Below are positions 9,562 to 57,613 of a DNA stretch of 64,000 bases, one piece after another. Positions within the stretch are counted from its first letter, which is position 1. Each line of letters starts with the position of its first letter. This DNA is from Candidatus Bathyarchaeota archaeon (GTDB taxonomy: Archaea > Thermoproteota > Bathyarchaeia > Bathyarchaeales > Bathycorpusculaceae). Both the position numbers and the translations under genes were made by a program. The stretch lies in contig CAWFFH010000004.1 in the NCBI GenBank assembly GCA_963815095.1, positions 231,790 through 295,789 on the forward strand. Direction: 5' to 3'. A model generated the notes under the pieces. That model saw only the letters and a list, made by a program, of their open reading frames with translations. It ran no database searches and was not told the DNA's origin.

Positions 9562-9864
9562 CTACTTTTTCCCGATTTTTTGCATAATCTCCTCAAATAG
9601 GAAATAATTGTCTTCCATTGTTTGAGATAGAAAGTAAGTTGCTCCATACCTGTCACCGACAGAAGTTATTATTTTGTTCTTCTCTAAGACTTCAAGGTGA
9701 TGCCGCATCGTTTTGTAATCCATTTTTAGCGAGGTAGCAAGTTGATTTGCGTTCTGTGGAGTCTCTTTGAGCGAAGTGATTATTTTTGCACGGGTTGGTC
9801 CGCCTCTGGTACCTGCGATTAGCCATCCTAGCAGGTATTTTAAGGAACGTGCATTTGCGGACAT
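9562..9864 (-). CDS. ArsR-like winged-helix transcriptional regulator
   Basis: GTRGGPTRAKII...NANQLA...DYKTMRHHLEVL. Confidence 0.85.
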   Translation of the reverse strand: MSANARSLKYLLGWLIAGTRGGPTRAKIITSLKETPQNANQLATSLKMDYKTMRHHLEVLEKNKIITSVGDRYGATYFLSQTMEDNYFLFEEIMQKIGKK

Positions 9865-10558
9865 TTTTTGGGTCTCCGGGCATTCGGGATTCTTTGTCAG
9901 ATTTAATCTGATTCTGGTAATAAATGTGCGCCTTTCAGCGCTTAGACTAAATTGATTTGGATCAAAATTAGGAGTTAATTTGGGTGTAATTTTGAAATAT
10001 TATTTAATAATACATCGGGGTTTTGGTGAGATAGGTAACTGAGAAGAGATTTGAAATGAAAAAGGCCGTAAGCCCAACAACTGCCCAATCGAAAACCCCT
10101 CAAGTTTCTTCTCAGTTGCCACTTTTGTTTATCCACTAAAAATAGGTGGTAAATGTGGGAATAATCAATATAGCAATAAGATATATTTCGCAACCGAAAT
10201 TCGTGATTTACTAGTAATTCGTGCCGTCAGGTTTTTCGTTGGCAATTATGGGTTTATTCCGTTGAGTGTTTTAGCTAACCAGCAGACAGCCACCAACATT
10301 GCTAACGACTTAACTAACACCAATAAACCAGACAAGCCAATCAATCAATGCCAATTCAACGTAGATAGATTGCAGTTTATCCTCAGGTTTTGAATTTAGA
10401 GGAAGCGGAAATGGCGGGAGTTATACTCCACGACAGTATGGCCGAGATACTGCTGGTGGATCAGAAACTATCGATTCCATAGCGGTTTCGGCAATCATTA
10501 GTATGTTGGAACTTTTTGTAAATTAAATAGAAATTTGGGAGGCTGAATTTTCTTTGTG

Positions 10559-19714: not shown

Positions 19715-19789
19715 AAGAGTTGCAGTCATGAAACCTTCCCCTTCTCCATTAAGGTTCATCCCAACTTTTATCCCGAGACTGCAACTCTT
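19715..19789 (+). ncRNA. Candidate sRNA (13-bp outer stem, TGAAACCTT/AAGG core)
   Basis: AAGAGTTGCAGTC/GACTGCAACTCTT perfect inverted repeat; TATA CCTATAAT at 19683-19690; core shared with 37779-37841. Confidence 0.6.
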
Positions 19790-19965
19790 AAACTAATTAC
19801 TCGATGAATCGTCTTAAGATCAAATTGTTAATTTATAGCGTGTTTTTACGGAGAATTGCTTTAAGGAAAATTCAATATTTCATTAACAAAAAGAATGTTT
19901 CGTTGATAATGTTCATGGGAGAAGACATAATTAGTTTAATATCCAATCAAAAGAGAGGAAACCCG

Positions 19966-20904
19966 ATGGATACACTTGTTTGCAGCGCTTGTAAGAGCAA
20001 AGAAGCCTTTTTTTTCAGGCAATACTCAGGTGAGCGGCTATGCAAAAAATGCTTCACCGAATCCATCGAGACAAAAGTCCGCTCAACCATAACTCGTTAC
20101 CATATGCTTAAATTCGATGACAATTTGGCGGTAGCGGTTTCAGGTGGCAAAGACAGCCTCAGCATACTGCACATACTTGCAAAACTGAAGAAGTCCAGAC
20201 CAAAAACCCACCTAACCGCAGTCACTGTAGATGAAGGCATCAAAGGCTACCGCGACGAAGCTTTAGAAATCGCCGCATCAAACTGCCAAAAACTCGAAAT
20301 CCCACACCACATCGTTTCATTCAAAGAACTTTACGGTTTTACACTTGACGAAATGATTTCTAGGGCACGCGAAAGGGGGAAGACAGAGTTAACTGCATGT
20401 GCTTACTGTGGAGTGTTACGGCGTAAGGCCATTAATGCTGGTGCGCGACAGGTTAAAGCCACCAAAGTCGCCACCGGGCATACTCTCGACGACGAGGTGC
20501 AGACAGTTCTGATGAACATTTTCCATGGCGACATCGCAAGATTAGCAAAAGAAAAACCCGTCACCAGTGAAGTCCATCCATTATTCGTCCAGAAAATTAA
20601 GCCCTTCTGCGAAATTCCCGAAAAAGAAAGCGCACTTTATGCTTACGTTAAAAAAATCAAGTTCCAAGACACACCTTGCCCATATGCTTCCGAAGCCCTT
20701 CGCAATGATATCAGAGGGATGCTTAACCGAATGGAAGAAAAGCATGCTGGAACCAAATTCACAGTTTCCAAAGCCATTGAACGTTTACGTCCTGCTCTTG
20801 AAGAAACCGCTCGAAAAGAAGATTTCAAAACTTGTACTGAATGTGGAGAACCGTCGGCGTTGGATTTGTGTAAAGCTTGCGAATTGCTCAGGCACGTTCG
20901 TTAG
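19966..20904 (+). CDS. ncsA: tRNA 2-thiolation protein, TtuA/Ncs6 (TIGR00269) family
   Basis: N-terminal Zn finger, PP-loop SGGKDS, CAYCGVLRR, TGHTLDD, CPY and C-terminal Zn finger; likely start is ATG 19966. Confidence 0.9.
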   Translation: MDTLVCSACKSKEAFFFRQYSGERLCKKCFTESIETKVRSTITRYHMLKFDDNLAVAVSGGKDSLSILHILAKLKKSRPKTHLTAVTVDEGIKGYRDEALEIAASNCQKLEIPHHIVSFKELYGFTLDEMISRARERGKTELTACAYCGVLRRKAINAGARQVKATKVATGHTLDDEVQTVLMNIFHGDIARLAKEKPVTSEVHPLFVQKIKPFCEIPEKESALYAYVKKIKFQDTPCPYASEALRNDIRGMLNRMEEKHAGTKFTVSKAIERLRPALEETARKEDFKTCTECGEPSALDLCKACELLRHVR

Positions 20905-22836: not shown

Positions 22837-23148
22837 TGGGCTGGCGAGTTGGTGTGTGGCTTTCGGACCCAAATTTGGGTCTGAGGAAACTCCGCCCACA
22901 TGTAGAATTGCAGTCCTCCGGGACAGCGCGAGAGCGTTGGCAACGGAGCAGAAACGAAACGTCCACCCAGACAGGCAATGACACATTTGTGATGTCGAGT
23001 GCGCTGGATTGGAAGCGGTGAAACGGCCGTCCTGCAAGTGGAAAGGGCAAACAGTCGCCGATGAAGCATCTACCGGAAGGCGCGGGTAGCCCGATTAGCC
23101 GAATGCCACAGACAACAGAAGGCGGGTTACTGCCAACACACCAGCCCA
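22837..23148 (+). ncRNA. rnpB: Archaeal RNase P RNA
   Basis: GAGGAAACTCC (CR-I) and AACAGAAGGCGGGTTAC (CR-V); terminal P1 TGGGCTGG/CCAGCCCA; GC-rich island. Confidence 0.95.
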
Positions 23149-37287: not shown

Positions 37288-37569
37288 TCATTTTCTGTAA
37301 ATTAGGAGAGTGTCAGGTTCAGTTTTGTTTGGGGAATATTTTGTTTTCCAAAAACTGCCCGTTTGGAAGTTAAGTTGATGATTAAATAGTGTGCCTTGTA
37401 CGCATTTTTTTGTTTCCTCATCAAGAATTCCTCTAATAATAATTTGATACCCCGAGGTAGGAGTGTTGGGTGAGGTTAATTCTAATCCATGTCCATCCAA
37501 ACCTCTGCAGTTATCAAGGAGTTCTTTTAACACTGATATTGCTTCTTCACGTTTCAAACCAATTCCCAC
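37288..37569 (-). CDS. Small hypothetical protein, R-x2-A-x3-[ILM]KE[IL] family (copy 3)
   Basis: LKREEAISVLKELL...GYQIIIRG...LLIYRK. Confidence 0.7.
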   Translation of the reverse strand: MGIGLKREEAISVLKELLDNCRGLDGHGLELTSPNTPTSGYQIIIRGILDEETKKCVQGTLFNHQLNFQTGSFWKTKYSPNKTEPDTLLIYRK

Positions 37570-37778
37570 CTATCTCAAAGTAAATTCTCATAAAAACATT
37601 AGGCTTAGGTTACAATCTAAAATAGGCAACGCTCAAGGATTGTTTGAAATTGATGTTTTCAAATGTCAAACCATCATTCTAAGGATAACTTATTGATTAT
37701 TTTGAGCATTAGATGATTGGGTGAACCCGTATGTGTAAGGGGCAAAATATTTATACATAAATAACACTGTTATACGTA

Positions 37779-37841
37779 ATGAGCAGGAAGCATAAATTGA
37801 AACCTTGCCCAAGGACCAATCCCCTTATGCTTCCTGCCCAT
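37779..37841 (+). ncRNA. Candidate sRNA (13-bp outer stem, TGAAACCTT/AAGG core)
   Basis: GCAGGAAGCATAA/TTATGCTTCCTGC perfect inverted repeat; TATA ATTTATAC at 37749-37756; T5 at 37846-37850. Confidence 0.6.
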
Positions 37842-37924
37842 ATAATTTTTCATACAATCATAATTTAATTTTTAATTAAAAAGACAATAACAAAATAGAG
37901 GGAATTTAATTAATCCCTAATCAA

Positions 37925-38578
37925 TTAGGTTTCTAAGCTTGTGCGTTTATTTTGGCCAATTCCGATTTCTACTTCAGGAATCTTTTCTTTTAGCCTATTT
38001 TCTGCGATACATTCTGCTTCTTCTAAGATTTGCAATGCATCTGCACTTGCCATTATCGTATTTACCGGTGTATCAGCACCTTGGTTGGTCGTAGTTGTAA
38101 CTATGTCTGAAAGAAGGTTTCCAATGTTTCCGAGTTCTTGGCTTGCTTCAGGAAATATGCTGCACATTTCAGAGCGGATATTATTTATCATGCTTTTAGC
38201 GGGGCTCAACACTGCAACTACGTCACCCAGTTCTGAAACCGTACTCAACCGCATCGACATACTTTGCATGGCCAGGGAAGCTTGTGAGAGCATTTTTTCA
38301 ACTTTACGTATCTCGCCTAATTCTGTAGCAAGAATGTTTGCGCGCGCCGTATCCCTTTCTGTCATGGCTTTCACAACCCGCTTAAAAATGTCCGCATCAC
38401 GAACCTCAAAACGTTGCACTGCAGCATCCAATGTCCTAGTCTGAGCGTCAAGACGTTGAGTAACCACGCCAATTTGCTCTTTGAGGTTTACTTGCGGCTT
38501 GGCCATGTTTTTAATCTTTGAAACAACATTAGGCTCTTTTTCTTTTTCCGTCCACCTGCTAATGAAATGGTTAACCAA
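37925..38578 (-). CDS. Snf7/ESCRT-III family protein (CdvB1/2-like)
   Basis: RDADIFKRVV...ANILATELGEIRK...MRLSTVSELGDVV...LSPA; ILEEA near the C-terminus; no C-terminal wH extension. Confidence 0.85.
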   Translation of the reverse strand: MVNHFISRWTEKEKEPNVVSKIKNMAKPQVNLKEQIGVVTQRLDAQTRTLDAAVQRFEVRDADIFKRVVKAMTERDTARANILATELGEIRKVEKMLSQASLAMQSMSMRLSTVSELGDVVAVLSPAKSMINNIRSEMCSIFPEASQELGNIGNLLSDIVTTTTNQGADTPVNTIMASADALQILEEAECIAENRLKEKIPEVEIGIGQNKRTSLET

Positions 38579-57188: not shown

Positions 57189-57265
57189 TGGTGCCGAGGG
57201 CAGGGTTTGAACATGCGACGACTCGGTCTTCAGCCGAGCGCTCTCCCAGGCTGAGCTACCTCGGC
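57189..57265 (-). tRNA. tRNA-Phe(GAA), intronless, CCA encoded
   Basis: Acceptor GCCGAGG/CCTCGGC; anticodon arm CTCGG-CTGAAGA-CCGAG; one T-stem mismatch (U52-C62). Confidence 0.92.
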
Positions 57266-57539: not shown

Positions 57540-57613
57540 GGGCCGTTAGTCTAGCTGGCTAGGACGTCGCCCTCACGCGGCGAAGATCACCGGTTCAAAT
57601 CCGGTACGGCCCA
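57540..57613 (+). tRNA. tRNA-Val(CAC), intronless
   Basis: Acceptor GGGCCGT/ACGGCCC; anticodon arm TCGCC-CTCACGC-GGCGA; T arm ACCGG-TTCAAAT-CCGGT. Confidence 0.96.

Follow-up and report, generated by a model that had tools for sequence, protein, structure and literature searches.

Does the hairpin at positions 37779 to 37841 of this archaeal DNA encode a structured small RNA and, if it does, when would that RNA be made and what would it do? Bathyarchaeia are abundant and uncultured, and in the titles and opening parts of abstracts that made up the literature we searched, we found no regulatory RNA for them. We analysed the hairpin within its window, by which we mean the whole stretch of 64,000 nucleotides from a Candidatus Bathyarchaeota archaeon, and in the genomes of its relatives. 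The locus is a real and new gene for a structured small RNA that is restricted to one lineage, a group of uncultured archaea from soil and sediment. Our preferred account, to which we attach a probability of about 0.6 when it is taken as a whole, is that of an independent gene of a Bathyarchaeia genus that produces an sRNA of ~63-72 nt from a sulfur-linked promoter, with the RNA acting in trans. The locus offers a well-defined RNA family with firm covariation support and a full promoter with two candidate operators. It also offers a concrete and testable link to how cysK and homocysteine synthase are controlled, and a sulfur-responsive regulon in archaea, the regulator behind it, and the lineage's first sRNA can all be tested without culture.

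A long hairpin with a C-rich interior

The hairpin is built around a perfect 13 bp stem in which GCAGGAAGCATAA (37783-37795) pairs with TTATGCTTCCTGC (37825-37837), and this stem is lengthened to the full 37779-37841 by ATG.A on one side and.CCAT on the other. An inverted-repeat search over the whole window returned it as two 17-nt arms (37779-37795 and 37825-37841) that are 94% complementary and lie 29 nt apart, and among 26 inverted repeats it is one of the best three with a long interior, the other two being at 10034-10120 and 19715-19789. Folded as RNA of the plus strand, the hairpin reaches -26.4 kcal/mol, where shuffles average -9.95 (z -6.83; 0 of 200 shuffles equal it), and the minus strand gives a z of -5.61.

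The predicted product is a 63-nt RNA of the plus strand whose 5′ and 3′ ends are paired with each other. Its purine-rich 5′ arm, AUGAGCAGGAAGCAUAA (37779-37795), reads GCGGGAGGC, GUGGGAGGC or otherwise in other genomes and is matched there by changes in the pyrimidine-rich 3′ arm, UUAUGCUUCCUGCCCAU (37825-37841), which is defined by complementarity and covariation. Enclosed between the arms is an inner helix of ATTG/CAAT and CCTT/AAGG with a GCCC cap. The cap belongs to the apical motif UUGCCCAA (37805-37812), whose UU and AA are paired here so that the loop is GCCC. On the 3′ strand, a bulge of CCCC (37821-37824) adjoins the outer stem, a place where nearly all homologs carry a C-rich (UU)CCCC. 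The stem, the interior ATTG-AAA-CCTT-GCCC-AAGG-AC-CAAT, and the bulge are all present as the original prediction had described them. It had further placed the element convergent with an ESCRT-III gene and divergent from a gene of a small-protein family. These neighbours are confirmed: a CdvB1/B2-like gene (37925-38578, minus strand; NCBIfam E 1.3e-43, below cutoff) is convergent with the hairpin, and a 93-aa ORF (37288-37569, minus strand) that matches no family is divergent from it.

Covariation and distribution of the RNA family

BLAST against relatives returned orthologs of the hairpin RNA at 71-80% identity, and a covariance model, R1, was built on 18 homologs (alignment A2). R1 scores the RNA of this genome at 64.5 bits (E 9e-14). 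Across 32 homologs, 90.2% of the cells are paired and both-sided changes occur in 13 of the 21 pairs (58 cells), values that 0 of 500 shuffles reach, the sequences being kin and the shuffle counts not being probabilities. Sliding the 3′ partners by 1-3 columns leaves only 35-46% of cells paired. The 18-sequence seed, subject to the same reading, gives 90.9% of cells paired, both-sided changes in 14 of 21 pairs, 0 of 500 shuffles reaching these values, and 33-48% in the slid controls. Outer-stem column 13-71 is A-U in 13 homologs, G-U in 13, and G-C in 6, while inner-stem column 30-51 is C-G in 14 and U-A in 10. Fourteen of the 32 homologs come from genomes outside the seed and have the same fold. 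On this comparative evidence, the compensatory changes that keep the helices across homologs mark the locus as a structured non-coding RNA gene. That it would prove to be one had been proposed at the outset, with a covariance-model search as the check; both helices covary and, of the genus's 119 other genomes (by title, Candidatus Bathyarchaeota), the search matches 34.

The conserved block, first seen in a five-way alignment, runs from about -55 to the last paired base and ends there. Within it, UUGCCCAA is exact in 30 of the 32 homologs, the remaining two carrying TTACCCAA and CTGCCCAA, and the internal loop keeps a 5′ strand rich in A and, on its 3′ strand, (UU)CCCC; the spacing between the arms varies from 29 to about 45 nt. 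The core ATTG-AAA-CCTT...AAGG-AC-CAAT, which had been taken for the conserved part, is limited to this genome and its nearest relative, and the orthologs keep only UUGCCCAA and the CCCC bulge. The outer arms are conserved in sequence beyond what the structure needs, even in paralogs in two other genomes that have a differing interior with a CUGCCCAGA loop, and this conservation is unexplained by the sRNA model.

The RNA is single-copy in this genome (R1, E<=1), and 12 members of the genus that were drawn within a sample of the order had no R1 match. Among the 149 other genomes of that sample, R1 gave one borderline match outside the genus (23.9 bits), in another genus of the family. Exact matches to the promoter pattern in the species collection were titled Candidatus Bathyarchaeota archaeon in 17 of 24 cases, the other seven being scattered chance matches. 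A metagenome scan with two 9-nt arm cores yielded at least 120 stretches; among the 80 matches listed, one is a family member (L164, 79.3 bits) and the remaining stretches are chance inverted repeats of 25-31 bits. A possible paralog at C3:896045, where 16 nt are identical to the interior, does not fold into a hairpin. A genome-wide search outside the window for perfect stems of >=11 bp, judged by eye, turned up no further hairpin of similar C-rich interior.

Gene neighbourhoods and the case for an independent gene

The company that the RNA keeps differs from locus to locus. It is found with CdvB-like and CxxCxxCC genes at five loci including this one (a CdvB neighbour at 5 of 30), with a CxxCxxCC gene and an AsnC-type ligand-domain gene at six, flanked by a MiaB-like radical SAM gene and by cysS at 6 of 30, and next to MoaC/MoaB and an ArsR/Cdc6 pair at three; several further contexts are unique. 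The MiaB-cysS spacer of the present genome is without the RNA. At loci L052 and L057, small gene pairs that look HicB/HicA-like by eye in translated sequence lie between the RNA gene and cysS. At least four differing neighbourhoods, together with an RNA-free cysS here, argue for an independent gene, and the variety of neighbours rules out a cdvB terminator as a general explanation.

The alternative that survives these comparisons best, and that we still regard as unlikely, is that the hairpin and its T-run start a longer mRNA, as a cis-acting 5′ leader or attenuator that controls read-through and has been orphaned in this genome. In six genomes the MiaB-like gene, the RNA, and cysS all point in one direction, and a place in a cysteine regulon would suit cysS. 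A co-directional gene (YCII-like or other) follows 80-400 nt downstream at about half of the loci, and 8 of 32 homologs lack a nearby T4 run. A look-alike hairpin in the window (10034-10120) also has an equivalent in relatives that lies ~45 nt before an FtsX/MacB permease gene, with a T-run between. The downstream genes, however, come from unrelated families, and the next gene is convergent here and at at least 12 other loci. HicAB-like genes separate the RNA from cysS at two of the six loci, the spacer holds a conserved element, the cysS of this genome is without such an RNA, and no antiterminator fold is evident. T-box and other aminoacyl-tRNA synthetase leaders also invite comparison: the RNA resembles them in lying upstream of cysS in six genomes and in holding a UGC in its loop, but most copies are without a downstream synthetase, there is no UGGN-type element, and pairing with tRNA-Cys is poor.

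Promoter, strand, and ends

A conserved putative archaeal promoter can be read upstream of the hairpin. The most distal element is palindrome 1, CCCGTATGTGTAAGGG (37726-37741, plus strand; -53 to -38), with the consensus CCCnTA-N4-TAAGGG. This putative transcription factor site was matched by regular expression in 28 of 32 promoters, lies just upstream of the BRE, and is the sole such site in the 2.69 Mb genome. A conserved BRE-like CAAAATA and TATA box TTTATACA (37750-57; -29 to -22) follow, together spanning 37743-37757 on the plus strand. The promoters of orthologs read GCAAAA-N3-5-TTATA(G), and in all groups the BRE/TATA lies at -36 to -22. Between the TATA box and the putative start is palindrome 2, AATAACACTGTTATA (37760-37774, plus strand; -19 to -5), an operator-like site with the core ATAACRnYGTTAT that is present in 28 of 32 RNA promoters.

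Transcription would begin at a conserved RUG at 37779, ~23 nt past the BRE/TATA, a spacing that is the usual archaeal geometry, and would end at the T-run after the hairpin. A run of five Ts at 37846-37850 on the plus strand is the likely archaeal termination signal; T4 or longer runs lie within ~20 nt of the hairpin in 24 of 32 homologs and are missing nearby in the other 8. The TATA and T5 that had been noted beforehand are both in place, with TTTATA ending 23 nt before 37779. The start, the T-run termination, and the choice of the plus strand are our reading of sequence. In every neighbourhood the promoter block is on the same side of the hairpin, and there is a modest wobble bias that would favour the plus strand, with 43 G-U against 28 A-C cells across the 32 homologs, which are kin, and 21 against 21 on the first 18.

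The matter of strand bears on a further alternative, namely that the element acts from the minus strand, where it would terminate transcription of the CdvB-like gene or form a hairpin in the 3′ UTR of that gene, or that it is a DNA palindrome serving as a protein site or cruciform. The hairpin lies 84 nt past the cdvB stop, the minus-strand fold is itself strong (z -5.6), and the 28 A-C cells would be G-U on that strand. Against this, CdvB adjoins at only 5 of 30 loci, the side of the promoter block is constant whatever the neighbours, and the interior motif is invariant and strand-specific. An arm spacing of 29 to about 45 nt combined with covariation of the arms is unsuited to a dimeric DNA-binding site. 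We consider this group of explanations improbable.

Coding potential and known RNA families

The hairpin also coincides with a 29-codon ORF from 37779, MSRKHKLKPCPRTNPLMLPAHIIFHTIII, which might be a leaderless gene for a small protein. The position equivalent to 37779 is ATG in 22 homologs, GTG in 7, and something else in 3, so that 29 of 32 have ATG or GTG at the putative start, and the first six or seven codons are alike (MSRKHRK, VSRRHRK, MSGRQK). Beyond them the reading frame falls apart: one-base indels shift it, the invariant TTGCCCAA is read in frames 0, 1, and 2 in 14, 8, and 10 homologs, and ORF lengths range from 6 to >32 codons. Even in codons 2-5 the changes are often non-synonymous and yet are compensated in the 3′ arm. 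The ORF had been named beforehand as the thing that might be conserved; with its loop motif in three frames it is not, and we hold a small protein gene to be very improbable. A Cys-rich leader peptide was rejected along the way, being unlikely because TGC is in frame as a Cys codon in only 10 of the 32 homologs.

Known RNA families account for the element no better. Rfam 15, run over the whole window at gathering thresholds, reported nothing at the hairpin and elsewhere only the archaeal RNase P RNA (22844-23141, plus strand, 181.8 bits), tRNA-Phe(GAA) (57189-57265, minus strand), and tRNA-Val(CAC) (57540-57613, plus strand), all of them ordinary. With the threshold relaxed to E<=10 over 37700-37900, the best match was mir-483 at 20.7 bits against a gathering value of 60 (E 0.099). 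Archaeal single-hairpin H/ACA RNAs invite comparison, given a size of ~65-70 nt and the succession of lower stem, internal loop, upper stem, and apical loop, and the 5′ AUGAGCA is faintly like a C box. Unlike those guides, the RNA has no ACA box, K-turn, or K-loop, and its pocket strands are not conserved. An ACA box within 8 nt 3′ of the stem occurs in only 1 of 32 homologs, and the C box RUGAUGA and a D box CUGA at the 3′ end occur in 0 of 32 each. Inspection of the 32 sequences, whose apical region reads (C)UUUGCCCAAUCG, showed no conserved GA/AG pair for a K-turn or K-loop, and the internal loop has nothing but C and U on its 3′ strand, leaving no sheared G-A pairs for a K-turn. A bulge-helix-bulge substrate was also rejected, the bulges lying 3′ of a short helix in mirror image and in this genome only. 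A guide RNA of the H/ACA or C/D box type, which the original prediction had wished to see excluded, or a bulge-helix-bulge substrate is accordingly hard to credit after negative tests for Rfam families and for the ACA, C, and D boxes.

A promoter element shared with sulfur amino acid genes

The connection between the RNA gene and sulfur metabolism comes from palindrome 2. The 2.69 Mb genome contains six ATAACRnYGTTAT sites, a number that is about chance for ten fixed bases, and our claim of a regulon is based on conservation at three promoters and not on the count of sites. Three of the six are the promoters of the RNA, of cysK (TIGR01139, 471 bits against a cutoff of 351), and of an O-acetylhomoserine/O-acetylserine (OAH/OAS) sulfhydrylase gene (TIGR01326, 640 bits against a cutoff of 495). 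At cysK the palindrome again comes after a TATA-like box and before the Shine-Dalgarno/start region. Among 30 genus genomes, RNA-free ones included, it is found before cysK in 29 and before the sulfhydrylase gene in 27. Because the site is kept at these two genes even in genomes that have no RNA, it appears, as far as promoter comparison can tell, that a sulfur amino acid regulon existed first and that one sub-clade later brought the RNA under its control.

The shared control site also suggests when the RNA gene might be switched on. Since ATAACRnYGTTAT holds the same place before cysK and the sulfhydrylase gene, genus-wide, as it does before the RNA, the RNA would most likely be switched on and off in step with sulfur amino acid synthesis, and a single repressor would probably govern both. 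The gene divergent from that for the sulfhydrylase (G000 C8, L277:837-1388, minus strand) encodes a 184-aa protein with HTH_3 and CBS domains, which is a plausible candidate for the regulator that binds palindrome 2, though regulator and signal alike are guesses on our part. In the spacer between these two genes (G000 C8:32560-32690, orthologs L277-L305), another palindrome, AATATTC-N5-GAATATT, is also strongly conserved and precedes ATAACGCCGTTAT. Two more exact ATAACAnTGTTAT sites lie outside the window, at G000 C3:1354778 and C4:173172; one, followed by an 11 bp hairpin, precedes a gene for a 378-aa predicted secreted protein without a Pfam family, and the other has a TiaS-like gene on one side and a 4Fe-4S ferredoxin gene on the other.

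How the RNA might act

Under our preferred account of a trans-acting sRNA, the transcript would be one long hairpin in which a 13-15 bp purine/pyrimidine outer stem unites both ends. Moving inward, an internal loop with an A-rich 5′ strand and CCCC on the 3′ strand would lead to a 6-8 bp inner stem and the apical UUGCCCAA. The exposed C-rich loop and bulge would be the natural functional sites, and we suspect that the RNA acts in trans through GCCCAA and CCCC. One possibility is that these sites pair with G-rich stretches of target mRNAs. Alternatively, they may bind and titrate an RNA-binding protein that also recognises GCCCAA...CCCC in an mRNA leader.

The first possibility has parallels among trans-acting sRNAs with C-rich exposed loops, which include the bacterial RsaE-type RNAs with UCCC loops and sRNAs of Methanosarcina with C/U-rich loops. 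Like them, the RNA has a stand-alone gene with a putative regulated promoter and a predicted T-run end, forms a small stable hairpin, and combines invariant single-stranded GCCCAA and CCCC with stems that are free to covary. It differs from them in having no Rfam similarity and no target that we found, and its motifs do not fit the CCUCC-type anti-Shine-Dalgarno logic. The 3′ end of the 16S rRNA is the ordinary GGAUCACCUCCU here, so that the partner would be GGAGG, which CCCC matches poorly, and the RNA has no match in the 16S rRNA. Genomic complements of the loop and arms gave no convincing target, as they lie inside longer ORFs (for example a 15-mer at C3:429695 within a 368-codon ORF) or are single chance hits.

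Pairing with tRNAs was likewise considered and rejected. GCCCAA is complementary to U33-C38 in the anticodon loop of tRNA-Pro(UGG), one of two 6-nt matches among 40 tRNAs and at chance level, and this anticodon loop is unchanged in the genome whose RNA reads UUACCCAA, so there is no covariation. The tRNA-Cys loop, CUGCAGA, pairs poorly.

The second possibility recalls the titrating RNAs CsrB and RsmZ, in that one motif is common to the small RNA and to a leader-like hairpin before the FtsX/MacB permease gene, an analogy of logic only. In contrast to CsrB and RsmZ, there are one or two motif copies per RNA here and no known partner protein, and to our knowledge Archaea have no CsrA. A bolder form of the preferred account, which we put forward tentatively and consider doubtful, is that this is the first archaeal sRNA in the control of sulfur and of cysteine and methionine. 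The HTH-CBS protein, through sensing of an adenosyl ligand, would lift repression at ATAACRnYGTTAT from the RNA as well as from cysK and homocysteine synthase. Sharing its GCCCAA/CCCC module with an mRNA leader, the RNA might serve as a sponge for an archaeal C-rich-RNA-binding protein or as a riboregulator that re-allocates sulfur, in logic like the iron-sparing RyhB.

Other hairpins of the window and genome

The hairpin at 37779-37841 had been presented as the second copy of an sRNA that kept its core while its stem was wholly substituted, a pattern offered as the signature of an RNA family. This argument was not supported. With <=3 mismatches allowed, the 25-nt core is matched nowhere else in the window, and R1 finds no second copy in the genome; nor does the model detect the other hairpins of the window. 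The hairpin at 19715-19789 (plus strand) shares only TGAAACCTT/AAGG with it and has a 13 bp perfect stem of its own, a C/U-rich loop, an AUCCC bulge, and a conserved promoter, GAAATTCATAAAnCCTAT. Its orthologs have a UCCCUUCUCC-type loop, and 5 of 80 genus genomes contain homologs. This hairpin is followed after 15 nt by a TtuA-like PP-loop gene (19804-20904), which is absent from that place in one relative checked.

The third hairpin, at 10034-10120 (plus strand), has a 21 bp stem and the interior AAGGCCnUAAGCCCAAUAACUGCCCAAUCG..CCCC and occurs in 13 of 80 genus genomes. Its promoter, at about 9990-10015, has its own conserved BRE/TATA, TTTTGAAAAATTATTTAATAA, unlike that of the hairpin at 37779-37841, and an ArsR-type gene (9562-9864, minus strand) is divergent from it. 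The module TGCCCAATCG...CCCC is common to these two hairpins, and the interior at 10034-10120 carries AGCCCAAUAACUGCCCAAUCG...CCCC, including a second GCCCAA. The three hairpins are separate families with a shared architecture of promoter, long stem, and C-rich interior. If an sRNA and an mRNA leader have a motif in common, a partner that binds both, be it protein or RNA, would make sense of it; we regard this as a lead. Downstream of the third hairpin, remnants of the FtsX/MacB permease gene can be seen at 10146-10393 (plus strand), where the reading frame that opens with VGIINIAIRY.. is cut off after 19 codons and an ORF further on, ..LANQQTATNIAN.., resembles the relatives. In this genome, then, the gene has apparently decayed with its upstream hairpin intact.

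Two observations from elsewhere in the genome may be added. Long homopolymer tracts, tens of T followed by A, occur at G000 C1:176936-177073 and C3:1320184-1320243 and are possibly assembly artefacts. Hairpins whose stems are nearly identical stand in tandem, three or four to a cluster, at G000 C3:64100-64380, C3:510720-510890, and C3:1453340-1453660, with the stems GAAGAAGAAG/CTTCTTCTTC, AGAACAACAAC/GTTGTTGTTCT, and TTGTTGTTGCA/TGCAACAACAA, and single copies at ~15 further places; they look like a further family of repeated hairpins, or like an RNA made up of several hairpins.
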